Positions 7,409 to 31,356 of a DNA stretch of 64,000 bases are shown here, piece after piece. The stretch is from a virus. The translations under genes and the position numbers were made by a program. A model generated the notes under the pieces. It searched no databases. It was given only the letters and a program-made list of their open reading frames with translations, and was not told the DNA's origin. The DNA lies in IMG/VR virus record IMGVR_UViG_3300021354_000450, positions 64,001 through 128,000 of that record, one strand, 5' to 3'. Every line of letters begins with the position of its first letter. Within the stretch, counting starts at the first letter, position 1.

Positions 7409-7419
7409 GGAAAAGTAAA

Positions 7420-7620: not shown

Positions 7621-7629
7621 TTCAGTTTC

Positions 7630-7683
7630 TTGACAACACAAGGTTTATAGTGTATAATTAACACTATAAACCTTTCTTTTTAT
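7630..7683 (+). promoter_or_regulatory. consensus sigma70 promoter embedded in a 14-bp inverted repeat/terminator
   Basis: TTGACA 7630-7635, 17 bp, TATAAT 7653-7658; AAGGTTTATAGTGT/ACACTATAAACCTT followed by a T-tract. Confidence 0.8.
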
Positions 7684-7689
7684 AGACTT

Positions 7690-8511
7690 ATGAATATGGA
7701 CTACTATCAAATATTAAACGTTGATCGCAACGCATCACAAGACGAAATCAAAAAGGCTTATCGTGCCTTAGCAATGAAACATCATCCTGATCGTGGCGGT
7801 GATGATAACAAATTTAAAGAAATACAAGAAGCATACGCAATCTTAGGGGACGAACAAAAGAAATCGCAATATGATAATCCTCAACCACAATTTCACGGCG
7901 GCCCAGGTGGTTTTGAATTCCACTTTGGAGGTGGAGGACCTGCAGGATTTGAACACATGTTTGGTGATATTTTTGGATTTAGACAAAGGGCTCCTGTAAA
8001 TAGAAATATTCAACTCCAAACTCAAATATCTTTAGAAGATGCGTTTTATGGAAAAGAAGTTATCGCAAATATTTCACTTCCGAGTGGACGTGAACAAACA
8101 ATTAATGTAAAAATTCCTCCAGGAGTGCATGAAGGTACTAATTTACGGTTAAGTGGAATGGGCGATGATAGCATATCTGGAATACCACGTGGAGATATTT
8201 TATTATCAGTTCATATTACAGAACATCCAAAATTCAAACGTCAAGGTGATGATCTTGTTATCGAACATGAAATTTCATGTATCGAAGCAATGACTGGTTC
8301 TACGATTAACATTACAGGTATTGATAATAAACGATTAGAAACCACAGTTCCTGCAGGCATACAACATGATTCGATTTTAAGTTTAGCTGGAAACGGAATG
8401 CCAAACTTTAATGATCCTTCACGTAAAGGAAGATTATTGATTAGAATTAAAATTAGTATTCCTTCACTAACAGAAGATCAAAAAAGTTATTTAAGGAATT
8501 TGAATATATGA
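7690..8511 (+). CDS. dnaJ: DnaJ-class chaperone (type II, no zinc finger)
   Basis: J-domain DYYQIL...HHPDRGG, G/F-rich linker, DnaJ C-terminal domain; no CxxCxGxG repeats. Confidence 0.93.
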
Positions 8512-8996
8512 ATATCGTAAAATTTCCTGATCCAATATTAAGAGAACAAATGCCTTTATTTGATTTTGAGAATCCATCACATGATCCTGTTCAGTTAGAA
8601 CAAGATATGTTAGATTTGATGATTAAATTTGACGGTATTGGACTTGCAGCAAACCAGGTTGGTGAACGTGTTCGTATGTTTGTTATGGGAAGTAAGGCGA
8701 ATCCAACTAAAGGAATTGCATTTTTTAATCCAGAAGTGATTGCAAATACAGAAAATTTGCTTGATTTGGAAGAAGGTTGCTTGAGTTTTCCTGGAATTTA
8801 TGTTAAAATAAAACGTCCTAGCGCAATTAAAGCAAGGTGGCAAAATTCAAAAGGTGAAGTAATGGAAGGAGAGTTTACAGGTTACGATTGTAAATGTTTC
8901 CTTCACGAACTTGATCATTTAGAAGGTGTAGTTTTTCAGGATAGAGCAAGCAGTATTAAATGGGCTCTTGGTTTAAAAAAATTAAAAAGGAAATAA
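8508..8996 (+). CDS. def: peptide deformylase
   Basis: [20 protein letters not shown] motifs. Confidence 0.96.
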
Positions 8997-8997
8997 T

Positions 8998-15816: not shown

Positions 15817-16182
15817 ATGAGAGCAAGAGAATTTATAGAAGAAAGCAAACTTCGTAAAAGTGCAGTTTCAAGTATACCCGGTGCTCAACAGTATCCTGAA
15901 TTAGATAATAGCAATCCTTATCATTCTTATAGATTTGGGGTAGCAATGGCAGGGGCTCCTGACTTCATGGCAGATAAAGACGGTCCAACTGGACAACATT
16001 TGGTTACAATTGGATACACAAGTGCATGTGATGAAATTACAAATGCGGCGTCAAAACATTTAGGTTTTAAATCAAAAAAATTAACACCTAAAGATAGTAC
16101 AGAAGTAGATACTACAGGTAAACATAGTCCGGTTTCAAATTGGTTGAAACCTACAAAAAAAGAGAAGAGTAAAAAGAAATGA
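15817..16182 (+). CDS. hypothetical protein with MRAREFIEE N-terminus (putative processed head protein)
   Basis: directly abutting ORF; IxE motif near the N-terminus. Confidence 0.75.
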   Translation: MRAREFIEESKLRKSAVSSIPGAQQYPELDNSNPYHSYRFGVAMAGAPDFMADKDGPTGQHLVTIGYTSACDEITNAASKHLGFKSKKLTPKDSTEVDTTGKHSPVSNWLKPTKKEKSKKK

Positions 16183-16967
16183 AAAAACCAAACGTTTATT
16201 TAGACATGGATGGCGTATTAGCAGACTTTTTTACAGAGTATGCAAAACTTGCCGGAGTTGAAAGTGGAAACTATAGAGAAATTCCACCAGCAAAAACAGA
16301 TCCTACATTAAACAAAATGATAGGAACTGATTTCTTTGCTAGATTACCAAAATGTCCAGCGGCTGATCAAGTTGTTGGTATGTCGGTTAAGTTATTTGGC
16401 AAATACTATATTTGTTCAAGTCCTTTACGAGGCGATCATGAAGGTTCAGAAAAATGGAAAAAAGTTTGGATTAAACAACACTTAAATCCACAACCTGCTG
16501 AAGTTATCATTACTCCAAACAAAGCAAAATATGCAAAACAACCAGATGGTACTCCTAACATCTTAATCGATGATAGAGGAAGTAACATCAGTGCTTGGGA
16601 AAATGCAGGTGGTATTGGTATTAAATATCAAGCAGATGAAGATAGTTTACAAGTAATTGTTGATGGATTTGCTCGTGCAAGAAAAATCCTTAAAGGTCAA
16701 GAAGAACACAAACCACAACAGTTAAAAAGTTTAGACCGTAGTTCTGGTAAACTTATTGCTAAAAGTGGTGACGAAGATGAACATCCTACTTCAGCTGCTG
16801 ATTTAACAGTTAAAGAATCTGCAAGTGCTGGTGCAAGTGGTTCAGGCGGAATTGCGTCAAATTCAGCTACAGGCGGTTATGGTAATGGTTTTGTAAATGG
16901 CGGGCCAGGTGCAGAATCAATTGCACAAAAAAAGAAAAAATCAAAACAAATTAAGAGGGTGTCATGA
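16179..16967 (+). CDS. HAD-superfamily 5'(3')-deoxyribonucleotidase-like protein with low-complexity C-terminal extension
   Basis: YLDMDGVLADF (motif I), CSSP, K, ILIDDRGSN (motif IV); tail VKE/SASAGASGSGG. Confidence 0.85.
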   Translation: MKKPNVYLDMDGVLADFFTEYAKLAGVESGNYREIPPAKTDPTLNKMIGTDFFARLPKCPAADQVVGMSVKLFGKYYICSSPLRGDHEGSEKWKKVWIKQHLNPQPAEVIITPNKAKYAKQPDGTPNILIDDRGSNISAWENAGGIGIKYQADEDSLQVIVDGFARARKILKGQEEHKPQQLKSLDRSSGKLIAKSGDEDEHPTSAADLTVKESASAGASGSGGIASNSATGGYGNGFVNGGPGAESIAQKKKKSKQIKRVS

Positions 16968-18128: not shown

Positions 18129-20975
18129 ATGAGTTATGTAGATGCCATCTGGAACCGTGACGAGGATATCGTCCGTGTTGTTGAAAGAGATCCAGTTAAG
18201 GGTCGAACCTATCAAGAATTTCCCGCAAAGTATATGTTTTATTACCCTGATCAAAAGGGTAAGTATAGATCAATCTATGACGATTCTTTAAGTAAAGTTG
18301 TCTGTAAAAACTGGAAAGACTTTATTAAAGAACAAAAGATTCATAGTACACACAAGTTATTTGAATCAGATATTAATCCAGTATTTCGATGTTTAGAAGA
18401 CAATTATCTTAATCAAGAAGCTCCAAAACTAAATGTAGCGTTTTGGGATATCGAGGTTGACATGCAACCATTTGCTGTTTCAGGACAACACCTGGTAAAG
18501 ATTCGAAAAATAAAAACAGTAGTGGATGAAAAAGAAATAACAGTATTTAAATTAAATGAATTACCAAATAAAGAAGAGTATCAAGTATGGGATGATATTA
18601 AAAAGGAATGGGTTGATATTTACGGATGTAGATATTTAGAAGCAGGACCTGGCTATGCAAGTCCAGAAGATGCATTTATGCCTATTACTGCAATTGCTGT
18701 ACACCTACAATGGTTAGATATGCTGGTGTGTTTAGCTGTTCCACCTAAAACTCTTAAAATGGAACAAGCACAAGAATTAATTAAAGATATTCCGAATACT
18801 TTTCTATTCGACACAGAAGCAGAAATGTTAGAAACATTTTTAAATTTAATTGAAGATGCTGATGTACTAAGTGGGTGGAATAGTGAAGGCTTTGATATGC
18901 CGTATACTGTTAATCGTGTAATAAAAACTCTAAGTAAAGAAGATACTAGACGTTTTTGTTTGTTTGACCAATTTCCAAAGAAACGTGAATACGAAAAATA
19001 CGGAAAGAAAGCAAGTACATATGATCTTGTCGGTCGCGTACATCTTGATAGTCTTGAACTTTATAGAAAATATACCTACGAAGAAAGACACACTTATCGA
19101 TTAGATGCAATTGGTGAGATGGAAGTCGGTGAAACTAAAACTGTTTATGAAGGTACACTTGATCAATTATACAATAATGATTTTCGTACATTTATTCTTT
19201 ATAATAGACAAGATACCGCACTATTAGACAAGTTAGATAAAAAACTTAAATTTATTGACCTTGCTAATACAATTGCACATGAAAATGCAGTTTTGATTGC
19301 AACAACTATGGGTGCAGTTGCAGTAACAGAACAAGCAATTATAATTGAATCACATTCAAAAGGTTTAATTGTTCCAAGTCGTCCAAGAAAAGATGATACT
19401 GCTGATAATCAAGCAGCAGGTGCTTATGTTGCTTATCCAAAAAAAGGATTGCATGATTGGATAGGGTCAATGGATATAAACTCTCTATATCCGAGTGCTA
19501 TTCGTGCATTAAACATGGGTCCAGAAACTATTATTGGTCAACTAAGACAAGATTATTCAAAAGAAGAAATTGCTACCAAGATGGCAAAGAATGGCGGTAA
19601 GTTTGCATTAGCGTGGGAAGGAAAGTTTGGCAGTAATGAATATGAATTTGTTATGGCAAAAGATAAATCACATGATATAATTGTTGATTGGGAAAACGGA
19701 TCAACTGATGTACTAAGTGGTGCTCAAATCTACGAAATGATTTTTAATAGCAATCAACCTTGGATATTAAGTGCAAACGGTACAATCTTTACTTATGAAA
19801 AAGAAGGTATTATTCCAGGTTTGTTAAAAAGATGGTATTCCGAACGTAAGTCCCTTCAAGCAAAACTTAAAGATGCAATTAAAGCAGAAAACGAAGTTGA
19901 AGAAGAATATTGGGATAAACGACAATTGGTAAAAAAGATTTTGCTAAACAGTTTATACGGTGCTATTTTAAATTCAGGATGTAGATTCTTTGATAAACGG
20001 ATCGGTCAATCAACTACATTAACTGGTAGACGTATCGCTCGTCATATGGCTGCAAAAGTAAATGAATATGTTGCAGGCGAATACGATTATATTGGAAAAA
20101 GTATTATATACGGTGATACTGACTCTGTTTATTTTAGTGCATGGCCAATTTTAAAACATGATATCCAAAAAGGACTTATTCCTTGGAACAAAGATACAGT
20201 TGTTCAATTATATGATCAAATTTCTGATGAAGTTAATGCTACATTTCCAAAGTTTATGCTTGATGATTTTCATGTGCCAAAATCACGTGGTGAAGTAATT
20301 AAAGCAGGACGAGAAATTGTTGCTATCAAAGGTTTGTTTATTACTAAGAAAAGATATGCTGTATTATATTTTGATAAAGATGGTAAGAGACAAGACCAAG
20401 ACGGAAAACCTGGAAAGATCAAAGCAATGGGTTTAGATTTAAAACGATCAGATACTCCAGAATTTATGCAAAACTTTTTGAGTGAAGTATTAGAAAAAGT
20501 TTTAAATGGTGCAGAAGAACCGGAAATTTTAGAAATGATTTGTAATTTTAGAACTGAATTTAAAGCAAGACCTGGCTGGGAAAAAGGTAGTCCAAAACGT
20601 GCCAATAAAATAACTGATTATCAAGCTAAAGAAAAGAAACAAGGTAAGGCAAATATGCCGGGTCATGTTCGTGCAAGTATTAATTGGAATACTTTAAAAA
20701 CAATGCATGGTGACAAATATAGTCAACAAATTGTCGATGGTATGAAAGTTATTGTTTGTAAGATTAAAGACAATCCACTCGGTTTTACAAGTGTTGCTTA
20801 TCCAGTTGACGAATTAAGATTACCTAAATGGTTTCAAGAATTACCATTTAATCATAGTGAAATGGAAACTGCAATTATTAATAACAAGTTAGACAATTTA
20901 ATCGGTGTACTTGATTGGGATTTAAGTTCAACAACACAAGATAATAACTTTAACAGTTTATTTTCATTCAATTAA
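18129..20975 (+). CDS. family B DNA polymerase (T4 gp43-like)
   Basis: Exo I DIE, Exo II WNSEGFD, Exo III YNRQD; pol motifs DINSLYPS, KILLNSLYG, YGDTDS, KKRY. Confidence 0.97.
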   Translation: MSYVDAIWNRDEDIVRVVERDPVKGRTYQEFPAKYMFYYPDQKGKYRSIYDDSLSKVVCKNWKDFIKEQKIHSTHKLFESDINPVFRCLEDNYLNQEAPKLNVAFWDIEVDMQPFAVSGQHLVKIRKIKTVVDEKEITVFKLNELPNKEEYQVWDDIKKEWVDIYGCRYLEAGPGYASPEDAFMPITAIAVHLQWLDMLVCLAVPPKTLKMEQAQELIKDIPNTFLFDTEAEMLETFLNLIEDADVLSGWNSEGFDMPYTVNRVIKTLSKEDTRRFCLFDQFPKKREYEKYGKKASTYDLVGRVHLDSLELYRKYTYEERHTYRLDAIGEMEVGETKTVYEGTLDQLYNNDFRTFILYNRQDTALLDKLDKKLKFIDLANTIAHENAVLIATTMGAVAVTEQAIIIESHSKGLIVPSRPRKDDTADNQAAGAYVAYPKKGLHDWIGSMDINSLYPSAIRALNMGPETIIGQLRQDYSKEEIATKMAKNGGKFALAWEGKFGSNEYEFVMAKDKSHDIIVDWENGSTDVLSGAQIYEMIFNSNQPWILSANGTIFTYEKEGIIPGLLKRWYSERKSLQAKLKDAIKAENEVEEEYWDKRQLVKKILLNSLYGAILNSGCRFFDKRIGQSTTLTGRRIARHMAAKVNEYVAGEYDYIGKSIIYGDTDSVYFSAWPILKHDIQKGLIPWNKDTVVQLYDQISDEVNATFPKFMLDDFHVPKSRGEVIKAGREIVAIKGLFITKKRYAVLYFDKDGKRQDQDGKPGKIKAMGLDLKRSDTPEFMQNFLSEVLEKVLNGAEEPEILEMICNFRTEFKARPGWEKGSPKRANKITDYQAKEKKQGKANMPGHVRASINWNTLKTMHGDKYSQQIVDGMKVIVCKIKDNPLGFTSVAYPVDELRLPKWFQELPFNHSEMETAIINNKLDNLIGVLDWDLSSTTQDNNFNSLFSFN

Positions 20976-20978: not shown

Positions 20979-21007
20979 TTGACCATAACTACTTTTGGTT
21001 GTATAAT
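20979..21007 (+). promoter_or_regulatory. sigma70-type promoter
   Basis: TTGACC 20979-20984, 17 bp, TATAAT 21002-21007. Confidence 0.75.
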
Positions 21008-21035
21008 AATAAAACATTTAAAAAAAGGAAAAATA

Positions 21036-21770
21036 ATGATTGATTTACTTAAAGACATTGTATCACACACTCATAACTTAGGTTTTTTAGATACTGTTAA
21101 AATTACAGGTGACGATGAATCAACTAAAGTTGATAGTATGGCTGCTGACCGTTCAGTAATTTTATATGGAGAAGTAAACTCACCCGTGCCAGAAATGAAA
21201 GGTATTTTTGGTATGCCACAACTTAACAAATTAAAAATACATTTAGATTGTCCTGTTTATAAAGAAAATGCAAAACTTGAAATTGTTACAGCAGATCGTA
21301 ATGGTGAAACAGTTCCAGTCGGTATTCATTTTGAAAATGATCTAGGTGATTTTAAAAACGATTATCGTTTTATGAACACCGACATTATTAATGAAAAACT
21401 AAAAACTGTAACATTTAGAGGTGTTACTTGGCATGTAGAAGTTAATCCTACAATTACTTCAATTCAAAGATTTACTTTTCAAGCAAATGCAAATAATGAA
21501 CATCCAACATTCTTAACAAAAGTAGAAAATGGTAATCTAAAGTTTATATTTGGTGATCAATCAACACATGGTGGCGAGTTTGTATTTGCATCAAATGTTG
21601 TAGGTAATTTAACTAAAGCATGGACTTGGCCGGTAAGTCAAGTATTGAGCATTTTAAAAATTGCTGATGCAAACAATGCAAAATTAAGTATTAGTAATGA
21701 CGGTGCAATGCAAATTACTTTAGACAGCGGAATTGCAACTTACAAATACATTATTCCAGCTCAAGCATAA
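21036..21770 (+). CDS. DNA polymerase sliding clamp (gp45/PCNA-like)
   Basis: about 244 aa, two-domain alpha/beta pattern ending YKYIIPA; next to polB, with a clamp loader in the window; ATG 21036 after AAGGA SD. Confidence 0.7.
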   Translation: MIDLLKDIVSHTHNLGFLDTVKITGDDESTKVDSMAADRSVILYGEVNSPVPEMKGIFGMPQLNKLKIHLDCPVYKENAKLEIVTADRNGETVPVGIHFENDLGDFKNDYRFMNTDIINEKLKTVTFRGVTWHVEVNPTITSIQRFTFQANANNEHPTFLTKVENGNLKFIFGDQSTHGGEFVFASNVVGNLTKAWTWPVSQVLSILKIADANNAKLSISNDGAMQITLDSGIATYKYIIPAQA

Positions 21771-21927: not shown

Positions 21928-23436
21928 ATGACAATATCATTATGTAAAATCTGTGGTGCACCCGTTGTTAAATTTATCAAATCAACAAATAAATGGTGGG
22001 ATTGGTGCTCAAACAAATGTATGGGTGCTGATCCTTCAATTTTAGAAAAAAAGAAACAAACAAATTTAAAGAAGTTTGGAGTTGCTCATCCGATGGAATT
22101 AGTAGAAATACGAGATAAAATTAAAACAACAAATTTAGATCGTCATGGGTATGAAAATCCATTTAGTGATAAAGAAATTCAGAAAAAATTAAAACAAACT
22201 TATATTGATAAATTTGGAGTTAATAATCCATCAAAAAATAAAGAAATAATTAAAAAGATCAGTGAATCTGCAATTTTAAGATATGCCGATTCAAAAGAAG
22301 AAATTCTTAACAAACGTCAAGCTACTTCTCTTAAAACATTAGGTGTTGCTTCAAATAAGCAATTACATATTCCAAAAGAATCTATTCGTTTAATGAAAGA
22401 TTTAGAATGGTTAAAAGATCAACATTTTATTCAAAAGAAATCATGTCAACAGATTGCAAATGAATTAGGAGTGTCTGCAACTCCGATCTTAACATTTATG
22501 TCAAATAACGGAATTGAGATAATTCGCCATTCCGTTTCACAAGTTGAACATGAAATAAGAGAATTTGTTAGCACGTTAACTGATGATGAAATTATTTTTA
22601 ATGATCGATCAATTTTATATCCAAAAGAAATAGATGTATTTTTTCCAAGACAACATTTAGGAATCGAAGTAAATGGTGTTTTTTGGCATTCTGAAGAAAG
22701 AGGAAAAGACAAGTATTATCACATTAATAAGACAAAAAAATGTGAAGATAAACAAATTCAACTATTACATATATATGATACTGAATGGGCAAACCCAATT
22801 AAGCAAGAAATTATTAAATCAAAATTAAGACATAAATTTAATAAATCAATAAGAATTTTTGCAAGACAGTGTCTTATAAAAGAAGTTGATAATAAACAAG
22901 CAGAAGAATTTTTAATTGCAAATCATTTACAAGGAAATGTATCTTCGCGTTTTAAAATAGGATTATTTTATAATAATGAATTAATTTCAATTGCAACACT
23001 TGGAGTTTCTCGTTATAATAAATCATATCAATTAGAACTTTTGAGATATTGTAATAAATTAAATCACACAGTTGTTGGCGGCTTAAGCAAAATATTAAAG
23101 TATGTTGCTAATAGAAATAATATCGATTCAATAATCTCATATGCAGATAGAAGATGGACTGCTAATTTAAATCATAATTTGTATGAATCATCAGGATTTA
23201 CATTTTTACACGAGGCATTACCTAATTACAAATATTTTAAAATAACTGATATAAATTTAACACTTCTTTCAAGAAATCAGTTTCAAAAACATTTACTTGA
23301 ATCAAAATTACAAACATTTGATAGCACACTTACAGAATATGAAAATATGACCATAAATGGATATTTTAGAATTTGGGATTGCGGCAATTTAGTATATATT
23401 TGGAAAAATAACAAAAAGGAAAAACATGAAATATAA
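21928..23436 (+). mobile_element. free-standing Hef-like PD-(D/E)xK homing endonuclease gene
   Basis: N-terminal CxxC...C zinc motif, repeated KxTNLxxxG-xNP units, nuclease EIDVF...IEVNGVFWH, C-terminal YADRRW...GYFRIWDCG; TAAATA at 21903. Confidence 0.75.
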
Positions 23437-25060
23437 ACCACCAGTAGATCTAACTCAAGGCGTTGGCGATTCGGCTGTATTTTTGCCAGCTATCAGTTCG
23501 TTTTATTCAACATATATTGCAAAACAACGACTTGAAGAATTTGTTCCAACTGATCGAATCCCAAAAGGATTCGATCGTGGGATCGAAGGAATGAATTTTT
23601 TAAATCCAGAAGACGGATACTTTACTTACAAGTACGGGCTATATTCAGCAGGACATGCACAATTAGATCTTAATAAAAGTCTAATTCAAGAATCAATGAT
23701 TCAACAACGCGATAGAAAAAACACTATGATTCTAGGTGACTCAGGTGGTTATCAAATAGGAAAAGGTGTTCTTAAATTTGATTGGTTAAACTTCGATGGT
23801 CCTAGTGCAAATAAAACTCGTCAAAGCATTTTAGAATGGTTAGAATTAACTGCTGATTGGTCAATGATGCTTGACGTGCCGACCTGGGCTTGTGATCATA
23901 TTCATAGTCCAAAAACAGGTTTAAAAACATTTGAAGACTGTTTAGAAAAAACACGTTTTAATAATGATTACTTTTTACAAAATCGGTTAGGACAAACTAA
24001 ATGGTTAAATGTATTACAAGGTGGTGATTGGGATACTGCTGAAAAATGGTATCTTGGTGTAAAAGAGTTTAGTGATCCAACCGGTCCTTATGCTGGTAAA
24101 GAAGCAGAAGGATGGGCATTTGGAGGTGCTAACATGTGTAAAATGGATATCACTTTAAAACGTCTAATGACCATGCGTGAAGATAAGTTATTAGATGGAA
24201 AAAATTGGATTCACTTTTTAGGAACAGCACAGTTAGATTGGAGTTGTTACTTAACATCAATTCAACGTCAAATTAGAAAACATATAAATCCAGAACTTAC
24301 TATATCATTCGATTGTGCAAGTCCTTTTATCGCAACAGCACATGGTCTTGTTTATACTAATGCACAACACACAACTAAACGTTGGAGTGTTATTATGGAT
24401 AAAGCAATGGATAATAAAGGACTTGCCGGCAGTGAAATTCCATTTCCATTTGAAAGTGAATTTGGTAGACGGTTAACAGTTGGTGATATTTGTTATTATG
24501 ATTTAGGTGTTCCAAAAACACAACAAGAATTAGGCGAAGGTGTTAAATTTAATCACGTTGATCCTAATCATTATACTGTTGTTCCTAAACTTAATAAGTT
24601 GAATAAAATTCCAAATAAAACTTCTTGGGATAGCTTTGCTTATGCATTAATGATGGGACATAATGTATATTGTCATATTGTTGCTGTACAACGTGCAAAT
24701 CAATTAATGGATATCGAACGTGCAAAAGCAGAACCAGATTGGCGTTATTGGAACAAATTAAATGCAAAACAAGCAGGTCAAGATGAATATAGTGATTGGG
24801 TTCCAAGAAATATTTTATATTTTGATCGTTTTGTAACTGAATTGTTTGAAACAACTACTAAAGAAGAAGCATTTGAAATGATTGAACAAGCAATGCCATT
24901 CTTAAAATCGTTAGAAGGTGCAAGATTACAAGGTGGGCCTGCACAAAATACATTTAGTAATTTATTTGAAGTTGAAACCGTAACCAATGCAGAAGAAATC
25001 GATCTTGCGAATCCAGATGACGATGACTTACGTGCTTTAGAAGAAAGTATATCAGAATGA
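23426..25060 (+). CDS. TGT-fold guanine transglycosylase (DpdA-like)
   Basis: GDSGGYQIG, MMLDVP, NVLQG, GWAFGG, IHFLG, SFDCASP, HN motifs; clustered with folE and queE. Confidence 0.8.
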   Translation: MKYKPPVDLTQGVGDSAVFLPAISSFYSTYIAKQRLEEFVPTDRIPKGFDRGIEGMNFLNPEDGYFTYKYGLYSAGHAQLDLNKSLIQESMIQQRDRKNTMILGDSGGYQIGKGVLKFDWLNFDGPSANKTRQSILEWLELTADWSMMLDVPTWACDHIHSPKTGLKTFEDCLEKTRFNNDYFLQNRLGQTKWLNVLQGGDWDTAEKWYLGVKEFSDPTGPYAGKEAEGWAFGGANMCKMDITLKRLMTMREDKLLDGKNWIHFLGTAQLDWSCYLTSIQRQIRKHINPELTISFDCASPFIATAHGLVYTNAQHTTKRWSVIMDKAMDNKGLAGSEIPFPFESEFGRRLTVGDICYYDLGVPKTQQELGEGVKFNHVDPNHYTVVPKLNKLNKIPNKTSWDSFAYALMMGHNVYCHIVAVQRANQLMDIERAKAEPDWRYWNKLNAKQAGQDEYSDWVPRNILYFDRFVTELFETTTKEEAFEMIEQAMPFLKSLEGARLQGGPAQNTFSNLFEVETVTNAEEIDLANPDDDDLRALEESISE

Positions 25061-25593
25061 AAAGAGATTATGAGTCAGGTTCAAAAGAAGGAGTAACGTT
25101 CTTTGTCGGTAAAGAAATTGAACAAACTCCTGCTTTTGGAAAAATAACTTTATTTGTGGTTGGAGTACAAGATGTAGAAGAAATTTTACATCTTGTAAAA
25201 AACTATCCTTATGGTCCTATCGAACACATTTATTTTGGTGCAAATCAAAGTTTTCCAAAATTAAGATATGATGATGTAGAACGTTGGTCAAAATGGGAAG
25301 TTATGATCAAACAATGTTTAGATGCAGGATATCTTTGTACATTAGATTTTGATGTTGAGCAAGTTGAGGGATTATTAGAAAGTTGTTTAGTCGAACATCA
25401 TTTGTTTATTCCGCAAATTTCGGTGAAAATTCCTTACTTGACACAGTTAGGATATAATGCTACAATTAAGATAGACGATAAGGATTTTAAAGCTACAAAT
25501 CCCGGCGTTTGGTGTTTACCAATAAATGATGTAACACAACGAAAGTATTTTACTAATTGGTTTGAATATAAAAACGATGAGATTATAAAATGA
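25057..25593 (+). CDS. hypothetical protein translationally coupled within the deazaguanine cluster
   Basis: ATGA overlaps on both sides; HIYFGANQSF and KIDDKDFKATNPGVWC segments. Confidence 0.8.
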   Translation: MKRDYESGSKEGVTFFVGKEIEQTPAFGKITLFVVGVQDVEEILHLVKNYPYGPIEHIYFGANQSFPKLRYDDVERWSKWEVMIKQCLDAGYLCTLDFDVEQVEGLLESCLVEHHLFIPQISVKIPYLTQLGYNATIKIDDKDFKATNPGVWCLPINDVTQRKYFTNWFEYKNDEIIK

Positions 25594-26012
25594 GCATTGC
25601 GGCGACAATAAGAAATGCAAATCGACAAATTTGGGTAACTTTCAAAAAGGAAGGAATTCACTGTTTTCCAGCGGCAAAAAGCGATCCGAGGTTAAATACA
25701 AATGATGAATACGATGTTTCGTTCCTTGCGAGTCCACATCGTCACATTTTTCACTTTAGAGTGGCAATTGACGTTTTTCACAATGATCGAGATATTGAGT
25801 TTATCCAATTTAAACGCTGGCTAGAAAATTTATATGCCAGTTCTCTCAATAATTCTATTTTAGAACTTAACAACAAGAGTTGCGAAATGATTGCAGATGA
25901 CTTGTATCAGCAAATTGCACAACGATACCCTAATCGTGATGTAGTAATTGAAGTATCCGAAGATGGTGAAAATGGATGCACAATTTCATATAATGGAACA
26001 ACCGTAATTTAA
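25590..26012 (+). CDS. QueD-paralogous T-fold protein (DpdL-like)
   Basis: GIH...LASPHRHIF (LxxxHRHxF instead of the QueD CxxxHGH), SCEMIA, EVSEDGENG. Confidence 0.75.
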   Translation: MSIAATIRNANRQIWVTFKKEGIHCFPAAKSDPRLNTNDEYDVSFLASPHRHIFHFRVAIDVFHNDRDIEFIQFKRWLENLYASSLNNSILELNNKSCEMIADDLYQQIAQRYPNRDVVIEVSEDGENGCTISYNGTTVI

Positions 26013-26023
26013 AGGAAAGCGAA

Positions 26024-26251
26024 ATGGCACAACCCAAATGGCTCAATAAGTATTTGGTTATGAAACCAGATGTCATCAGGATTTATAACGATCTTGAAAC
26101 TTGGCACAATCATTGTCGTATTGAATTGATTGATTTTAATCCAGCAGATTTATACAAATCTAAAGCTTATAAAGATTGGCAACGAACGCAAGAATACTTG
26201 CAACGTAAAGCTCGTCGAGAAGCAAAAGCGAGGCAAAGTAATCAGATTTAA
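26024..26251 (+). CDS. hypothetical protein
   Basis: ORF with AAGGA SD. Confidence 0.7.
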   Translation: MAQPKWLNKYLVMKPDVIRIYNDLETWHNHCRIELIDFNPADLYKSKAYKDWQRTQEYLQRKARREAKARQSNQI

Positions 26252-27063
26252 TCTGTATAGTCTCTGACCTTACATAGTTTATTAAACTCCCAGAAGCCCC
26301 TTAAATGGGGTTTCGTTGTATCAAGTGATGGGCCGATTCCTTGTTCTTTACAAAATTGTATTCGATTGCCTTTGATTATAAAAACTTCCCCAGTCGGAGA
26401 TGTTGCCTGCCATACATAGGCATTATAGTTTTGTTCAGCAAATGAATCTCGTTTAGGACGTCTACGATTAGATTCTTTAGATTTAATTTTTCCCTCTTCT
26501 AATCCTGCCTGCCTAACCGATTCTACCCATTCTTTTCCAAAGTTATTGATAAGTAAATGCCGTATAGTATATTGTGCGTGGCCTGTTTTTTCAGCAGTAG
26601 TTTTAATGGTTTTGTATTTTTCAAAAAATGATTTAATAGAAGCGACATAAGTTTGATGATCAACATAACCGATTTTCTGTGCTATTGAATCCAAATGTTT
26701 GATCTTAACTTTTGGACAACTCATCGAATTTGGAAGAGCAGCAGTTAGTTCTCTAATAGTTTGATATTGTCGGGCTGTTAAAGTCCTTTGTGTTCCAGGC
26801 TTGGTCATCTTAAAAGCATCAACAGCTCTAAGCATCTTAAACCTAAATACTCCAGAAGTCATCTTTACTAATAATAGATGACATATATAATGTTCTCGAG
26901 CAGTTAGTGAAACAAGATTACTTTGGTCATTAGATCCCCCAAGACTCTTTGGATGTATATGATGTTTCTCAAAATAGCCAGAAGGAGCATTACCAATACG
27001 GCGATTGATAATGTTGTAATACCAACGATGATATTTATTGACGATGAAGTTGTTATGACCCAT
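26248..27063 (-). mobile_element. free-standing HNH homing endonuclease gene
   Basis: EKHHIHPKSLGGSNDQSNLVSLTAREHYICHLLL; antisense to the cluster; TAAATA (minus, 27069-27074) just before ATG 27063. Confidence 0.85.
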
Positions 27064-27094
27064 ACGATTATTTATCAATTCGATAGAAAAATGT

Positions 27095-27135
27095 TTGACT
27101 TTAAGAAAATTGTGTTGTATAATGTGTTGTATAAT
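27095..27135 (+). promoter_or_regulatory. sigma70 promoter with a tandemly duplicated -10 region
   Basis: TTGACT 27095-27100, 17 bp, TATAAT 27118-27123; TGTGTTGTATAA repeated at 27111 and 27123. Confidence 0.8.
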
Positions 27136-27153
27136 ATAGTAAAGGAGAAAAAA

Positions 27154-28245
27154 ATGACTGTATATATTGTGGATTTAGAAAAATTAGAAACTCGCTATAC
27201 TAAGCAATGGGCCATTCATGTGCCTAATTTAATAACACAACACGGGCACGAAGTAGTAGTCATCAGTGGTCCAGATGATATTCCATCTATTCCGACTCCT
27301 GGAATGTTTTTAAACTTTTCTGCTACCAATGTATACAAAGCAGTTCAAGTAGAAAAAATCAGCAGATTATTTTGCGAAGGTAAAATTAAAGACGGTGATT
27401 ATTTTCTCTTTACCGATGCTTGGCATCCCGGTGTTATCAATCTAAAATACATGATTAACTTGTTAGGTATTAACGCAAAAATTGGAGGTCTGTGGCACGC
27501 AGGATCTTACGATAAATGGGACGGATTAGGTCGTCTTGTTGGTAATGAACCATGGGTCCGTCACGCTGAGAAAAGTTTTTTCTGGGCATTTGATCATAAC
27601 TATTTTGCAACTGATTTTCATATTAACATGTTTGTTACTAATTTACTAAATAATGGGTTTAATGTTGGTGAATGGAAACAAGAAGATGTTGATAATTTAA
27701 AAAAATCAGGAAGGATTGTAAGAACAGGTTGGCCAATGGAATATATGGAAAATGCATTAGTAGAATATAAAAATATGGAAAAACGCGACCTTATTTTATT
27801 TCCACATCGTATTGCTCCAGAAAAGCAGGTTGAAATTTTTAGAGATTTAAAAGAACACTTACCACAATATGAATTTGTTGTTTGTCAAGATCAATACTTA
27901 ACAAAAAATGAATATCATAATCTATTAGGCGAGGCTAAACTTGTGTTTAGTGCAAATTTACAAGAAACTTTAGGCATTAGTTGTTACGAAGGTGCTGTTG
28001 TAGATGCTATCCCAATGGTTCCTGATCGTTTGAGTTATTCTGAAATGTATTATAGTGCATTTAAATATCCAAGTGAATGGACCGAATCATTTGAATCATA
28101 TGAAAAAAATCGTACTGCAATTTGTCATAGAATTAACCAATATATGGACAATTACAACCAATTAAAAGCAACAGTACGTAAACAAACATCTGACCTTACT
28201 GAGCAATTTTTTAGTTGCAATGTTTTATTAAAGATGTTAAAATAA
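27154..28245 (+). CDS. GT-B fold glycosyltransferase (GT4-like)
   Basis: FPHRIAPEKQ and SANLQETLGISCYEG (E-x7-E) donor-binding motifs; ATG 27154 after AAGGAG SD. Confidence 0.85.
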   Translation: MTVYIVDLEKLETRYTKQWAIHVPNLITQHGHEVVVISGPDDIPSIPTPGMFLNFSATNVYKAVQVEKISRLFCEGKIKDGDYFLFTDAWHPGVINLKYMINLLGINAKIGGLWHAGSYDKWDGLGRLVGNEPWVRHAEKSFFWAFDHNYFATDFHINMFVTNLLNNGFNVGEWKQEDVDNLKKSGRIVRTGWPMEYMENALVEYKNMEKRDLILFPHRIAPEKQVEIFRDLKEHLPQYEFVVCQDQYLTKNEYHNLLGEAKLVFSANLQETLGISCYEGAVVDAIPMVPDRLSYSEMYYSAFKYPSEWTESFESYEKNRTAICHRINQYMDNYNQLKATVRKQTSDLTEQFFSCNVLLKMLK

Positions 28246-28286
28246 AAACACAATGTCATCCACGACATTAACTCGGAGAAATATAA

Positions 28287-28979
28287 GTGTCAAATCAAAC
28301 AGTAAGCGAAAAAATTCGCACTCAATTAAAAACTAGCGGAAAACGTTTTTGGGCAGGAGATAATATCTCTGAATTTGTTAGTGAAAGCGATAAAATTAAT
28401 CTTATCATTGAAGCAACACGTGCTTTCGAACTTGTTTTAGATTCATTACTAATAGACCGTGAAACAGATCCAAACTCACAAGGTACTGCCCGCAGGCTTG
28501 CAAAAATGTACTTTAATGAAATTATGGCTGGACGGTATGATCCGGCTCCGGATGCAACAAGTTTTCCTAATGATAGCGATGACCGGTATGAAGGAATGTT
28601 GGTTGTACGAAGTGAATTAAAGTCAATGTGTTCACATCATCACCAACCTGTTAGTGGTGTAGCATATATCGGTATTATTGCTGCACAAAAACTTATTGGT
28701 TTATCAAAATATTCTAGAATTGCACAATGGTGTGCAAGACGTGGAACACTTCAAGAAGAACTATGTAACGATATTGCACGTGAAATTAGTCTAGCAACAG
28801 GCAGTGATAATATTGGTGTTTATTTAGAGGCCGAGCATGGCTGTTGCCTAAATAGAGGTATAATGGCTCACTCGAGTTTAACTCAAACAACTGTGCTTAG
28901 AGGAGCATTTAGAACTGATCCAAGTACTAAGAAAGAGTTCTTTGATAACATCAAACTTCAATCAAGAAACGGAAAATAA
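28287..28979 (+). CDS. folE: GTP cyclohydrolase I
   Basis: TARRLAKMY, SMCSHHH, IGLSKYSRI, LQEEL, AEHGCCLNRG. Confidence 0.95.
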   Translation: MSNQTVSEKIRTQLKTSGKRFWAGDNISEFVSESDKINLIIEATRAFELVLDSLLIDRETDPNSQGTARRLAKMYFNEIMAGRYDPAPDATSFPNDSDDRYEGMLVVRSELKSMCSHHHQPVSGVAYIGIIAAQKLIGLSKYSRIAQWCARRGTLQEELCNDIAREISLATGSDNIGVYLEAEHGCCLNRGIMAHSSLTQTTVLRGAFRTDPSTKKEFFDNIKLQSRNGK

Positions 28980-28980
28980 T

Positions 28981-29271
28981 ATGATTTTTAAAAAATGGTT
29001 TAATCGTAAAGTTAAAGAAGCAATCCAATCAATCCAATCAGATAATCAACGAACCCCTAAACCAATGGAAAATTATGTCAATCAGTCAATTGACTGTGAT
29101 AAAGGTATTCGATTTAAAGTTTTAAAAGCACAAGGTGGAACCATTATAGAAACAACTTTGTGGGATAATCGAAAATCTGACAATAATTTCGGACTTTATA
29201 TTATAAGAGATGATGAAGATCTTGGTCAAGGTATTGCAAAGATTATAACAATAGAATCATTAAAATCATGA
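28981..29271 (+). CDS. hypothetical protein
   Basis: ORF 28942..29271; ATG 28981 right after the folE stop is the more plausible start. Confidence 0.7.
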   Translation: MIFKKWFNRKVKEAIQSIQSDNQRTPKPMENYVNQSIDCDKGIRFKVLKAQGGTIIETTLWDNRKSDNNFGLYIIRDDEDLGQGIAKIITIESLKS

Positions 29272-29453
29272 TCTGTTATATGAGTGAAGAGATTGATGAA
29301 GATTTTGGCGATCTTGACAAGCAAAATAAATGGTTTCAAACCTATAAGCTTGATCCTATTAAATTAGGATATATGTGTGAAGAATATCCAGCTTTACAAA
29401 AAAGTTGGAATGAATTTATGATAATTTATAATTTATGTAATGGTTTAAAATGA
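29268..29453 (+). CDS. hypothetical protein
   Basis: ATGA-coupled small ORF (MCEEYPALQKSW). Confidence 0.65.
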   Translation: MICYMSEEIDEDFGDLDKQNKWFQTYKLDPIKLGYMCEEYPALQKSWNEFMIIYNLCNGLK

Positions 29454-29950
29454 ACAAATTAATTTTAGATGATGCAAAATTTAAAAACTTAGTTGCAAAT
29501 CTCTGTAGAGAAATTTCACTTAGTAATTGGAAACCTGACTATGTTGTTGGGCTAACACGCGGTGGTTTATTACCTGCTGTTATGATTAGTCATTACTTTG
29601 AAATTCCGTGTGAAACTTTAAAAGTAAATTTACGAGATCATAAAACTGGATTAGAATCAAATTGTTGGATGGCAGAAGATGCATTTCATAACAAAAAAAT
29701 ACTAATTGTTGATGATATTAATGACACCGGTGCAACTATTAATTGGATTATGCAAGATTGGCCACAAGGTTGTTATCCAAATAATGAAGTTTGGGAATCA
29801 ATTTGGAACAACAATGTAAAATTTGCAGTTGTGGTTGATAATTTATCAAGCGACTGTGAAGTTAAAATAGATTATGCAGGTATGGAAATTAACAAAGCCG
29901 AAAATGATGTTTGGGTTGATTTTCCTTACGAAGAATGGTGGACAAAATAA
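29450..29950 (+). CDS. type I purine phosphoribosyltransferase (Gpt/Hpt-like)
   Basis: VGLTRGG, PRPP-binding ILIVDDINDTGAT, WVDFPYE. Confidence 0.9.
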   Translation: MNKLILDDAKFKNLVANLCREISLSNWKPDYVVGLTRGGLLPAVMISHYFEIPCETLKVNLRDHKTGLESNCWMAEDAFHNKKILIVDDINDTGATINWIMQDWPQGCYPNNEVWESIWNNNVKFAVVVDNLSSDCEVKIDYAGMEINKAENDVWVDFPYEEWWTK

Positions 29951-30319
29951 ATGGCAAGATTAGAAGGATTTGTTGAGAAAGGTTGGGGACACGAAATGAT
30001 CTGGTCAACTAATGACAAGTACTGTGGGAAACTTATGCACTTTAATGAAGGTGCAAAGTTTTCAATGCATTTTCATGCTGAAAAAGACGAAACTTGGTTA
30101 GTGCTAAGTGGCTGTTTTATTGTTGAATATATCGATACAACTGATGCATTAGTTCGTTCAAAAACTTTAACAAAAAATAGTGTTTGGAGGAACGAACCGT
30201 TAGTTCCTCACAGACTTATTTGTGTTGAGAAAGGTGATATTATTGAAGTATCAACTCCGGATAGTGTTGAAGACAATTATCGTATATTACCAGGTGATAG
30301 TCAAAAATTAATAAAATAG
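29951..30319 (+). CDS. cupin-fold protein (sugar isomerase / ManC C-terminal-like)
   Basis: VEKGWGHE, FSMHFHAEKDETW, PHRL, EVSTP...DNYR. Confidence 0.8.
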   Translation: MARLEGFVEKGWGHEMIWSTNDKYCGKLMHFNEGAKFSMHFHAEKDETWLVLSGCFIVEYIDTTDALVRSKTLTKNSVWRNEPLVPHRLICVEKGDIIEVSTPDSVEDNYRILPGDSQKLIK

Positions 30320-30348
30320 TTGATTTTATTTTAAAGTTCATGTATAAT
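30320..30348 (+). promoter_or_regulatory. sigma70-type promoter
   Basis: TTGATT 30320-30325, 17 bp, TG-TATAAT 30343-30348. Confidence 0.7.
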
Positions 30349-30368
30349 AAATTTTTTTAGGAGGTTGT

Positions 30369-30527
30369 ATGAGTTGTGGTTGCGGTCGTAGTCCAACAGG
30401 TGAGTGTTGCGGTTGGCATGGTTTATCTGAAGATGCTTATAGACAAAAATTAGCTGAGTATGATAATAAAAATGTCGAAGTTCAAACTGAAGTAAACAAC
30501 TCTGGAAATGATAGTGAGCAAGATTAA
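30369..30527 (+). CDS. 52-aa CDGSH-like iron-sulfur mini-protein (not in the ORF track)
   Basis: AGGAGG SD; MSCGCGRSPTGECCGWHGLSEDAY... has CxCx2S...CxGxH spacing; overlaps the queE start. Confidence 0.7.
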   Translation: MSCGCGRSPTGECCGWHGLSEDAYRQKLAEYDNKNVEVQTEVNNSGNDSEQD

Positions 30528-31356
30528 AGTAGCGGAACTTTTCTACTCAATTCAAGGTGAAGGAAGATATATGGGAGTACCATCTATCTTCTTACGTACT
30601 TTTGGTTGTAATTTTTCTTGTAAGGGATTTGGTATGCTTCGAGGTAATATAAGTGAAGAATACTTGACTGTTAATCCAGAACTATATACAAAATACGATC
30701 AGCTGCCATTAGTTAGCACAGGATGTGATAGTTATGCAAGTTGGGATCCGAGATTTAAAAATCTTAGTCCTTTACTTGATACTGATGAAATTGCTGAAAG
30801 TATTATCGAAATGTTACCATTTAAAGAATGGCGTGATGAACATCTTGTGATTACAGGTGGTGAACCGTTATTAGGTTGGCAACGAGCTTTTCCTGATTTA
30901 CTTGACCATCCTAAAATGCAAGGATTAAAAGAAATTACATTTGAAACAAATGGTACTCAACCGTTGACTGATCAATTTAAATTGTATCTTTATAATTGGC
31001 AATTACAACAACCTGGAAGAGAAGTTACATTTAGTGTTAGTGCAAAATTAAGTGTAAGTGGTGAACATCCTGATCAAGCAATTCGTCCTGAGATTGTTTG
31101 TGGCTATGAAGATGTTGGATATACTTATCTTAAATTTGTTGTTGCATCTGAAGAAGATGCAGAAGAAGCATTAGAAGCAGTTGACATTTACCGTGCCGAA
31201 GGATTCATTGGGCCAGTTTATTTAATGCCCGTCGGTGGTGTTGAAAGTGTTTATACTTTAAATAATCGCACAGTTGCAGAATTAGCAATGAAAATAGGGT
31301 TAAGATATAGTGATAGATTACAAGTGCCGTTGTTCAAGAACGCGTGGAGTACATAA
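30514..31356 (+). CDS. queE: 7-carboxy-7-deazaguanine synthase, radical SAM (atypical Cx3Cx34C)
   Basis: ELFYSIQGEG, FLRTFGCNFSC...GCDS, VITGGEP, ETNGT, RLQ; start at GTG 30514 or ATG 30508. Confidence 0.88.
   Translation: MSKIKVAELFYSIQGEGRYMGVPSIFLRTFGCNFSCKGFGMLRGNISEEYLTVNPELYTKYDQLPLVSTGCDSYASWDPRFKNLSPLLDTDEIAESIIEMLPFKEWRDEHLVITGGEPLLGWQRAFPDLLDHPKMQGLKEITFETNGTQPLTDQFKLYLYNWQLQQPGREVTFSVSAKLSVSGEHPDQAIRPEIVCGYEDVGYTYLKFVVASEEDAEEALEAVDIYRAEGFIGPVYLMPVGGVESVYTLNNRTVAELAMKIGLRYSDRLQVPLFKNAWST

Follow-up and report, generated by a model that had tools for sequence, protein, structure and literature searches.

The window analysed here (the whole stretch of 64,000 nucleotides, taken from a 141-kb virus record that is about 40% complete) carries at 23426-31356 a real DpdL-type 7-deazaguanine DNA-modification module, the known gene set by which its bearer, a giant freshwater T4-like phage, would replace guanine in its DNA by 7-deazaguanine (Table 1). 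A glycosyltransferase (GT) is built into this module, and we tentatively favour the reading, held at a little under an even chance, that it acts on deazaguanine. If this is true, a GT within the deazaguanine set predicts a sugar-bearing purine in DNA. Unglycosylated dDG and dCDG in DNA are already described (PMC10516641); a literature search turned up no report of a deazaguanine in DNA that bears a sugar. The island had been pointed out in an earlier note, most of whose gene content was borne out, as were the ATGA or TAAATG couplings, which were read directly from the sequence; its CDGSH reading was not, and the start of the GT gene and the picture of QueD were corrected. Nor are all genes co-oriented as it had stated: the pathway genes of the island are on the plus strand, but an HNH homing endonuclease is on the minus strand.

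Table 1. Features of the island and related genes (positions are those of the window unless stated otherwise)
Feature	Position	Strand	Basis or remark
MazG-like pyrophosphatase	629-1003		
NT5C-type nucleotidase match	16179-16967		weak, sub-threshold
dpdA-like DNA guanine transglycosylase, 544 aa	23426..25060	+	TGT fold, divergent DpdA3-like subfamily
Conserved 178-aa protein, no family	25057..25593	+	ATGA overlap with dpdA and with dpdL
dpdL, QueD-like T-fold protein, 140 aa	25590..26012	+	signature; phrog_17812 1e-34
Small basic protein, 75 aa, pI 9.7	26024..26251	+	between dpdL and GT in 77/80 relatives
HNH homing endonuclease, 276 aa	26248..27078	-	phrog_655 4e-33
GT4-like retaining GT-B glycosyltransferase, 364 aa	27151..28245	+	model; PF00534 in family
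folE, GTP cyclohydrolase I	28287..28979	+	PF01227 2e-37; phrog_2197 5e-42
Two small ORFs, 109 aa and 61 aa	28942..29453	+	no family match
6-oxopurine-type phosphoribosyltransferase (PRTase)	29450..29950	+	PF00156 1e-16
Small cupin	29951..30319	+	phrog_7851 4e-37; PF01050 24.7 bits; WbuC-type cupin 6e-5
Cys-rich ORF, 52 aa	30369..30527	+	overlaps queE start; candidate gene
queE, radical-SAM 7-carboxy-7-deazaguanine synthase	30508..31356	+	phrog_2076 4e-51
queD, canonical, CRHLHGH	G000:C1:44123-44674 of record		about 43 kb upstream of dpdA; PF01242, 94 bits

By homology, FolE, QueD and QueE would convert GTP to 7-carboxy-7-deazaguanine (CDG). FolE and QueE had been named earlier and were upheld, the former by its Pfam match and the latter by its PHROG match, by several QueE NCBIfam models (about 1e-12) and by the conserved cysteines of CX3CX34C (C34 and C73 invariant, C38 in 58 of 59 homologues). 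The window does lack QueC, QueF and a CxxxHGH QueD, as had been stated, but the whole-record search located a canonical CxxxHGH QueD outside it, so that QueD is not missing from the genome. QueC was found neither in the record nor in five complete GT-bearing related phage genomes, and preQ0 would thus not be formed; QueF was also looked for and not found. The T-fold protein of the earlier note was identified as DpdL: its FLASPHRHIFHF stretch matches LxxxHRHxF, the published DpdL signature (PMC10516641), the QueD Cys is missing, and the motif was found in 73 of 80 IMG/VR relatives. Its homologues include phiST DpdL (33% identity by tblastn; profile E 4e-24) and proteins of ACP17, PA5oct and Phosso. 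DpdL is a proposed CDG decarboxylase of putative activity that would yield 7-deazaguanine, as proposed for phiST. The earlier suggestion that the pathway stops at CDG or 7-deazaguanine agrees with the DpdL signature and with the absence of QueC.

The 544-aa protein, about 230 residues of which are an additional C-terminal part, gave no direct TGT match in the Pfam search, and the TGT fold that had been claimed for it was recovered by both the AF2 model (pLDDT 82, pTM 0.83) and Foldseek (best 50 matches all Z. mobilis TGT, E 2e-7, probability 1.0). D105 (GDSGGYQ), D150 (LDVP) and D296 (SFDCASPF) are invariant across 31 homologues. Judged by sequence comparison, the protein is remotely homologous to DpdA3, the hhalign match to the ACP17/BUDD/BCSR5/phiST DpdA alignment being at the profile level only (probability 94%, E 1e-7); by homology, it would swap genomic guanine for 7-deazaguanine after replication. 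The coupled 178-aa protein fits its earlier description as an unknown, with no match in Pfam, PHROG, NCBIfam or PDB and weak leads only in the atlas search. It is present in 73 of the 80 relatives; a homologue in PA5oct (45% identity) lies 28 kb away from the cluster, and one in ACP17 (32% identity) is immediately upstream of DpdA3.

The closest described system is that of Cellulophaga phage phiST, in which FolE, QueD, QueE, DpdL and DpdA3 lead to 2'-deoxy-7-deazaguanosine (Hutinet, Cui et al., NAR 2023, PMC10516641). Both phages have the same precursor genes without QueC, a T-fold DpdL with the signature and a TGT-fold DNA transglycosylase, and in both the module lies beside replication genes. 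Besides the divergence of its transglycosylase, the analysed island differs in the additional 178-aa protein, PRTase and cupin, in its remote QueD and in its GT; phiST lacks a GT of this family, and the base in its DNA is plain dDG. The GT is therefore not required for base exchange itself.

The earlier GT-B assignment is supported by a confident GT4-like model (AF2 pLDDT 94.7). VIA-align gave full-length matches to sucrose-phosphate synthase, BshA, MshA, GlgM and PimA (Z 21-26), the structural neighbours belonging to GT4/GT5/GT20; PF00534 was matched in 24 of 45 family members. The donor-binding R220, K225, E272 and E280 (E-x7-E) are conserved, as are aromatic and acidic residues of the acceptor domain (W20, W91, W135, Y16, Y100, D89, D121 and D124). 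From the model, the full-length neighbours, the conserved R/K/E and PF00534, the GT appears to be catalytically competent. The family (1,121 clusters at 50% identity) is phage-specific, being 95-100% viral. Its true start is at 27151, with an AAGGAG Shine-Dalgarno sequence 7 nt upstream and a promoter-like sequence there too. A 440-aa version of the ORF starting at 26923 was rejected as an artefact; its upstream extension overlaps the minus-strand endonuclease gene, and GT homologues are 350-368 aa.

Among the 80 relatives, the GT adjoins dpdL in 76 loci, dpdA in 67 and queE in 57, and most loci without such a match have a contig end within the flank. The same context was found in a divergent clade (GT 28% and polymerase 27% identity). 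Similar clusters are present in Pseudomonas phage PA5oct (Wroclawvirus), Acidovorax phage ACP17, Sinorhizobium phage Phosso, Xanthomonas phages BUDD and X1 and Burkholderia phage BCSR5, all of them cultured phages, with the GT (23-47% identity) beside DpdL (45-62%), a DpdA-type protein and QueE, and with no QueC above the Pfam cut-off. The order is dpdA-GT-dpdL in PA5oct-like phages, dpdA3-GT-dpdL-queE in ACP17 and GT-dpdA-dpdL-queE in BUDD/X1; in BCSR5, the GT is likewise beside dpdL, a dpdA-type gene and queE. Accessory genes also vary: PA5oct has an SDR-like protein and BUDD a PAPS-reductase-like one. The co-occurrence of GT and dpdA, which had been put forward as a check, was thus seen in the relatives, the divergent clade, PA5oct-like phages, ACP17, BUDD/X1 and BCSR5. 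That adjacency survives shuffled gene order in very divergent phages supports, at the level of gene content, the view that the GT belongs with the deazaguanine genes. No publication on the modified-base chemistry of these six phages, and no mass spectrometry of DNA from any GT-bearing phage, was found in the literature searched; PA5oct DNA is reported to contain a modified G, its identity not given, and to be resistant at G-containing restriction sites (PMC12191111).

Part of this co-occurrence is inherited rather than independent, since the analysed clade, PA5oct and Phosso share an ancestral polymerase-clamp-...-RNase H module. It may accordingly be asked whether the DNA carries plain dDG or dCDG while the GT, placed in the cluster by replication-module synteny, glycosylates something unrelated, for example a polymer of the host envelope, a protein of phage or host, or a different DNA base. 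phiST reaches 100% dDG through DpdL and DpdA3 with no such GT, the nearest structural neighbours act on small molecules or glycans and not on DNA, and distant family members (26% identity) in PhiXhv-type phages lie beside GlmS-like and deacetylase genes without dpdL. We nevertheless consider this rather unlikely: the GT remains a few genes from dpdL/dpdA while gene order, DpdA subtype and neighbours vary, the Phosso GT, overlapped by dpdL, stays with dpdL, folE and queE although dpdA is 170 kb away, and the family is nearly all viral. A ThyA-type hydroxymethylase that would explain the GT, another point raised earlier, was not found; no ThyA-family enzyme was detected in the complete genomes of ACP17, BUDD and BCSR5 or in the analysed record, which argues against a hydroxymethyl-pyrimidine acceptor.

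The acceptor that we propose for the GT is deazaguanine, as the free base or in DNA, to which a sugar would be transferred from a host NDP-sugar; UDP-GlcNAc or UDP-Glc is the donor of the structural neighbours. This would yield a deazapurine bearing a sugar, for which we found no published description. Because no hydroxylase or other handle-making gene common to all GT-bearing clusters was found, several attachment points are candidates, namely C7 or C8 (as a C-glycoside), N2 and the CDG carboxylate. Known retaining GT4 enzymes make O-glycosides, and we know of no precedent for C- or N-glycosylation by this class. 7-Deazaguanine has no hydroxyl group, and this lack of an obvious O-acceptor counts against the proposed acceptor and for an unrelated one. 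The alpha- and beta-glucosyltransferases of phage T4 are likewise phage-encoded members of GT-B; with a UDP-sugar from the host, they act after replication on a DNA base that already carries a modification, but their acceptor, 5-hydroxymethylcytosine, is made via a ThyA-family hydroxymethylase absent here, and they are not among the best 50 structural neighbours of our GT4-like enzyme. QTMAN is a GT-B enzyme whose C-terminal half is of the Glycos_transf_1 type; its QTMAN_N domain (PF12038) was not detectable in the genome. QTMAN and QTGAL make mannosyl- and galactosyl-queuosine in vertebrate tRNA (PMC8654956, PMC11755703). They also place a sugar on a 7-deazaguanine-derived base of a nucleic acid, but the substrate is RNA and the sugar is on the cyclopentenediol hydroxyl of queuosine, a group that the analysed phage cannot make.

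The GT might instead act on an intermediate of the pathway, a pterin or a deazapurine, much as GT4 pteridine glycosyltransferases do. The glycoside would be a transient carrier, a solubilised pool or a means of self-protection, the sugar being removed before or during base exchange so that none is left in the final DNA. The combination of FolE, a T-fold protein and a GT4 enzyme resembles pterin-glycoside pathways, the best structural matches BshA, MshA and LmbT take small-molecule acceptors, and the conserved aromatic and acidic residues of the acceptor domain would suit such a role. In E. coli, ACP17 dpdL and dpdA alone gave no dDG, and further enzymes were suggested to be needed (PMC10516641), a result that speaks for the main reading as well. 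Such an intermediate appears improbable, since the clusters have no conserved glycosidase, phiST does without a GT, CDG-route pterins lack a side-chain hydroxyl past the QueD step, and analogy is its sole basis.

The purine PRTase named earlier was confirmed by PF00156 and by its best PDB matches (purine, xanthine-guanine and hypoxanthine PRTases). Most likely, it would recycle excised guanine through GMP to GTP, feeding FolE; formation of a deazaguanine nucleotide seems less likely. TubE and ToyH (tubercidin, toyocamycin) are purine-type PRTases encoded beside FolE, QueD and QueE that act on a 7-deazapurine base; the phage PRTase differs in being accessory in its clade, and it may simply salvage guanine. 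Were it to act similarly, CDG or DG would become a ribonucleotide and enter DNA via dNTPs and the polymerase, with the TGT-fold protein and the GT as auxiliaries. The position of the gene between folE and queE, its presence in 44 of the 80 relatives and PA5oct, the MazG-like and NT5C-type matches in the window, and a MazG-like gene with a small kinase-like ATPase in the phiST cluster are compatible with such a route, which we regard as the least probable of the alternatives: the PRTase was undetected in roughly half the close relatives and in the examined regions of ACP17, Phosso, BUDD and BCSR5, a DpdA-type protein with its catalytic Asp is always present, and guanine salvage is the simpler account. 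Moreover, all known phage deazaguanines are held to be inserted after replication (PMC10516641).

Also accessory are the cupin, the small ORFs and the homing endonucleases. The cupin was correctly recognised earlier (phrog_7851, PF01050 and WbuC-type matches), but its occurrence in only 2 of the 80 relatives does not fit a core sugar-tailoring partner. The 52-aa Cys-rich ORF, detectable by tblastn in 17 of the 80, had been read as a CDGSH-like Fe-S mini-protein; searches of Pfam (E up to 0.1) and PHROGs (E up to 0.001) gave no match for it, and loose Cys/His spacing is the sole basis of that reading. The 75-aa protein had no match in Pfam, PHROG or NCBIfam, and the 109-aa and 61-aa ORFs (in 34 and 5 of the 80, respectively) matched no Pfam or PHROG family. 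The HNH homing endonuclease, found at the same site in just two of the 80 relatives (L004 and L023), is a mobile insert outside the pathway.

The 140-aa T-fold protein contains the stretch FLASPHRHIFHF, and its portion LASPHRHIF conforms to the signature LxxxHRHxF, which in DpdL replaces the CxxxHGH motif of QueD (Hutinet, Cui and colleagues, PMC10516641). The signature was unchanged across 34 homologues and was found in 73 of the 80 related loci of IMG/VR (hereafter, the relatives). With tblastn, the protein was 33% identical to DpdL of the Cellulophaga phage phiST (2e-7) and 52% identical to DpdL of the Acidovorax phage ACP17 (7e-32), and the DpdL profile HMM matched phiST gp040 at 4e-24. 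The genomic company of DpdL (FolE, QueD, QueE, and DpdA, without QueC) was also confirmed. The protein, which had been assigned to the T-fold in the earlier note, is more exactly, as judged from this signature, DpdL, the proposed decarboxylase of 7-carboxy-7-deazaguanine (CDG). DpdL of the relatives fell into two subtypes (37% and 58-75% identity), both with LxxxHRHxF.

Neither QueC nor QueF was found in the source record (141,321 bp, with the window at 64001-128000, about 40% complete according to CheckV; the relatives reach 330-355 kb), and no QueC was detected above the cut-off in five complete genomes of phages with the glycosyltransferase (GT) and DpdL. Thus, the available base would be CDG or 7-deazaguanine (DG). 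The lack of QueC and QueF, which the earlier note had stated for the window, therefore held for the record, but that of QueD did not: about 43 kb upstream of dpdA, beyond the window, lies the gene for a canonical QueD containing CRHLHGH. In QueE, C34 and C73 were conserved in 59 of 59 homologues, and C38 in 58 of 59. These cluster cysteines are arranged as CX3CX34C, with the third cysteine 34 residues past the second; this arrangement is unusual and differs from both of the forms CX3CX2C and CX14CX2C. Taken as a whole, the island is very likely a DpdL-type 7-deazaguanine DNA-modification module.

Direct sequence searches (Pfam including PF01702, PHROGs, NCBIfam, and PDB) gave no family for the 544-aa dpdA-like protein. 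Fold prediction or family profiles were required for this protein, the GT, and the 178-aa protein, for all of which direct Pfam, NCBIfam, and PDB searches were uninformative. The AF2 model of the 544-aa protein, obtained with an alignment of 31 homologues (pLDDT 82, pTM 0.83), had the (beta/alpha)8-barrel fold of tRNA-guanine transglycosylase (TGT), and the best 50 matches in the Foldseek search against PDB were all Zymomonas TGT (probability 1.0, E 2e-7 to 3e-6), in agreement with the TGT-fold transglycosylase proposed previously. D105 (GDSGGYQ), D150 (LDVP), and D296 (SFDCASPF), which we take to correspond to D102, D156, and D280 of TGT, were unchanged across the 31 homologues. With hhalign, D105 and D296 fell on the motifs DSGG and YDS of the DpdA3-type proteins, and the aligned core also took in the region of D150. 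Profile-profile comparison of the 544-aa family with the DpdA alignment of ACP17, BUDD, BCSR5, and phiST gave a probability of 94.3% (E 1e-7, residues 99-314), and the motifs DSGG, H-x-LG, and (F/Y)D(C/S) lined up across the catalytic core. No BLAST-level similarity to DpdA of these four phages was found; because the described DpdA3 proteins were not matched at this level, nor was PF01702, the 544-aa protein would represent a remote, probably separate, subfamily. The model and the profiles identify it as a divergent DpdA3-like enzyme, extended at its C-terminus by about 230 residues, for which guanine exchange is predicted.

The same slot is occupied in the syntenic relatives by two very different DpdA types, one 35-40% and the other 64-83% identical to the window protein (comparison of L011, L016, L026, L049, and others with L004, L013, and L050, all IMG/VR relatives), and the GT beside either type retains 68-72% identity. 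These identities suggest a cassette-like replacement of the transglycosylase.

The GT gene was assigned to start at 27151, where it is preceded by an AAGGAG Shine-Dalgarno sequence and promoter-like TATAAT boxes; the homologues were all 350-368 aa. A longer ORF of 440 aa was rejected as a 5' extension that overlaps the opposite-strand HNH homing endonuclease gene; the GT-B fold proposed in the earlier note stood. The model, built with 45 diverse homologues (pLDDT 94.7), had the two-Rossmann-domain GT-B fold, and its full-length structural neighbours were retaining GT-B enzymes of the GT4, GT5, and GT20 families (sucrose-phosphate synthase, BshA, MshA, GlgM, glycogen synthase, and PimA; VIA-align Z 21-26, rmsd 2.9-3.5, 290-318 residues). 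T4 glucosyltransferases were not among the best 50 structural neighbours listed. The window GT did not match Glycos_transf_1 (PF00534) at E 0.01, 24 of the 45 aligned family members did (best 1e-6), and the family profile matched PDB 8xsg ('putative glycosyltransferase') at 1e-4. Among the 45 homologues, R220, K225, and E272 were conserved in at least 90%, and E280 was invariant; R220 and K225 are presumably the diphosphate-binding arginine and lysine, and E272 and E280 the E-x7-E motif of GT4 enzymes. For this family, at least 8000 close homologues were counted, and 1121 clusters were obtained at 50% identity (E <1e-3). Its members occur in at least 597 stretches of IMG/VR, and the proportion of viral sequences in its atlas clusters is 95-100%. 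By fold and conservation, the GT seems to be an active phage-specific enzyme that depends on an NDP-sugar.

The co-occurrence of the GT with dpdA, folE, and queE across phages, which had been put forward as a check in the earlier note, was observed in the 80 relatives and in distant cultured phages. The relatives keep the order polymerase, 263-aa protein, dpdA, 178-aa protein, dpdL, 75-aa protein, and GT, followed by folE, PRTase, and queE, even where DpdA is only 35-40% identical and DpdL is of the second subtype; since they form a single clade, the conserved order reflects descent as much as function. With Megablast, the island gave zero matches to cultured phages. The arrangement was dpdA-GT-dpdL followed by an SDR-like gene, PRTase, and queE in PA5oct-like jumbo phages; queD, folE, the 178-aa homologue, DpdA3, GT, dpdL, and queE in ACP17; and GT-dpdA-dpdL-queE in the Xanthomonas phages BUDD and X1, with a similar gene set in the Burkholderia phage BCSR5. 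In the Sinorhizobium phage Phosso, dpdL overlaps the GT, folE and queE are close by, and the dpdA homologue is 170 kb distant. A distant IMG/VR clade (GT 28% and polymerase 27% identical) has folE, polymerase, dpdL, GT, and a DpdA-like gene. The proximity of the GT thus outlasts changes in gene order, DpdA type, and accessory genes, which is the pattern expected of functional coupling, and we consider that the GT is probably a functional member of the module.

DpdL also occurs without a GT of this family (phiST, RHph_I1_18, and others), and the DNA of phiST contains plain dDG, the DNA nucleoside of DG, with full replacement. The broader GT family is not exclusive to the deazaguanine context, since a branch represented by the Xanthomonas phage PhiXhv-12 has no dpdL nearby. 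In that phage (L096, 5786-9020), a GT relative of 26% identity directly follows a GlmS-like amidotransferase and a BshB/LmbE-like deacetylase; this pairing hints at a GlcNAc-type donor, and the locus may represent a distinct system of phage modification based on amino sugars. In the distant clade, a second GT-family paralogue was seen a few kb upstream of folE (L090:1-636 and L091:2736-3953), besides the GT adjoining dpdL. No related loci were found in IMG/VR for the distant GT representatives P0374, P0328, P0288, and P0353.

As for the acceptor, a hydroxymethyl-pyrimidine as in T4 would also account for a DNA-directed GT. The T4-type system depends on a dCMP/dUMP hydroxymethylase of the ThyA family for its acceptor; in contrast, the hydroxymethylase search suggested in the earlier note found no member of this family (PF00303) in the record or in the complete genomes of ACP17, BUDD, and BCSR5, and such an acceptor is therefore unlikely. 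For a sugar on a deazaguanine, the nearest precedent is mannosyl- and galactosyl-queuosine of vertebrate tRNA (PMC8654956, PMC11755703). The phage GT differs from the queuosine glycosyltransferases of the QTMAN type in lacking the QTMAN_N domain (PF12038), which had no match at E up to 10 anywhere in the genome. No gene able to create a hydroxyl was common to all carriers, so that the attachment chemistry is the weak point of the hypothesis; because no such handle is made, a C-glycosidic bond at C7 or C8 was considered. The DNA of PA5oct withstands enzymes whose sites include G and is cut by nucleases that sense hypermodified DNA (PMC12191111). We put the presence of a sugar on the final DNA base at just short of an even chance. 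The fuller reading, in which the widespread freshwater clade of the window and PA5oct, ACP17, Phosso, BUDD/X1, and BCSR5 have a sugar-bearing 7-deazaguanine in place of DNA guanine, possibly with a C-glycosidic bond at C7 or C8, is offered tentatively, the chances being somewhat against it. The observation of the earlier note was thus confirmed in part, and its interpretation was supported in part.

To our knowledge, the 7-deazaguanine bases described in phage DNA are all small (dDG, dCDG, dADG, dPreQ0, dPreQ1 with its methyl and formyl derivatives, and dG+), the sugars known in DNA are all on pyrimidines, and no glycosylated purine in DNA has been reported before. No description of a glycosylated deazaguanine in DNA was found in the literature, and the literature searched on DpdL and DpdA3, on glycosylated deazaguanine, and on the carrier phages gave no chemical analysis of a GT-bearing phage. 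If present, a deazapurine with an attached sugar would constitute a new class of DNA base, and the GT4-like enzyme making it would have an acceptor chemistry without precedent in its own class; there would be consequences for evasion of restriction, CRISPR, and type IV or END nucleases, for sequencing of environmental phage DNA, and for new enzymatic DNA-labelling tools. The GT may also explain the failed reconstitution of dpdL and dpdA in E. coli. The family occurs in therapy-relevant PA5oct-like phages with modified G, and the prediction is directly testable in phages already cultured.

Among the other genes, the earlier calls of FolE, PRTase, cupin, and QueE were retained, with the conserved cysteines of QueE and the following matches of the PRTase. 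The latter (PF00156 at 1e-16) has a type I PRTase domain with the PRPP loop and is closest to purine PRTases (best PDB matches: 1vdm purine PRTase at 7e-10, Sulfolobus GpT-2, and E. coli XGPRT); its NCBIfam equivalog scores were all far below the cut-offs. Most simply, it serves in salvage, by recycling excised guanine into the GTP pool feeding FolE, and a TubE-like route, in which the PRTase would make deazapurine nucleotides, is a minor alternative. The PRTase gene was present in 44 of the 80 relatives, the Cys-rich ORF in 17, and the cupin gene in only two, a frequency that speaks against the cupin as the sugar-donor tailoring partner proposed before. In PA5oct, EST35_0320 (L002 12416-12934, 172 aa), located between dpdL and the PRTase gene, matched PF01370 (NAD-dependent epimerase/dehydratase family) at 6e-7 and could, from this match, either tailor a sugar nucleotide or act as a reductase. 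No sugar-activating NTP_transferase gene was found in the record.

The 52-aa Cys-rich ORF matched neither a Pfam family (E <=0.1) nor a PHROG (E <=0.001). Its Cys/His spacing is, on our assumption of the pattern, one residue off CDGSH, and the CDGSH-like (NEET) iron-sulfur identity given to it earlier was dropped as it had no HMM support. Homologues of the 178-aa protein were limited to the window clade, PA5oct, and ACP17; matches in the atlas search scored 0.86-0.87 and serve as leads only, and a relationship to the 'glycosylase' ORF of Phosso was rejected, the two being unrelated.

Features of the island and its surroundings (positions in the window)
Feature	Position	Strand	Location
Chaperone/proteostasis stretch	247-11271		upstream
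MazG/PRA-PH-like pyrophosphatase	629-1003		in the upstream stretch
DNA polymerase	18129-20975		upstream of the island
Conserved 263-aa protein	20979-21770		between polymerase and Hef-like endonuclease
Hef-like homing endonuclease, 502 aa	21928-23436	+	between 263-aa protein gene and dpdA
dpdA-like transglycosylase, 544 aa	23426-25060
HNH homing endonuclease	26248-27078	-	between 75-aa gene and GT
GT, 364 aa	27151-28245	+
QueE	30508-31356
RNase H/FEN-type exonuclease			downstream of the island
4489-aa ORF	47439-60908	-

Given the polymerase and the 263-aa protein on one side and the exonuclease on the other, the island is embedded in the replication module of a giant T4-like phage. Homologues of the 263-aa protein are annotated as a sliding clamp in Phosso and as a structural protein in PA5oct. 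Only two of the 80 relatives had the HNH homing endonuclease at this site; in PA5oct, it is the DNA polymerase gene, not the island flank, that is split by a Hef-like endonuclease. The sequencing runs containing the stretch were freshwater and lake metagenomes, with no RNA run among those listed. The upstream stretch encodes Cpn10-like, DnaJ, peptide deformylase, and ClpB-like AAA+ proteins, together with PhoH. The 4489-aa product of a single ORF is presumably structural or fibre-like, and other very large ORFs (997, 782, 693, 679, and 576 aa) are nearby.
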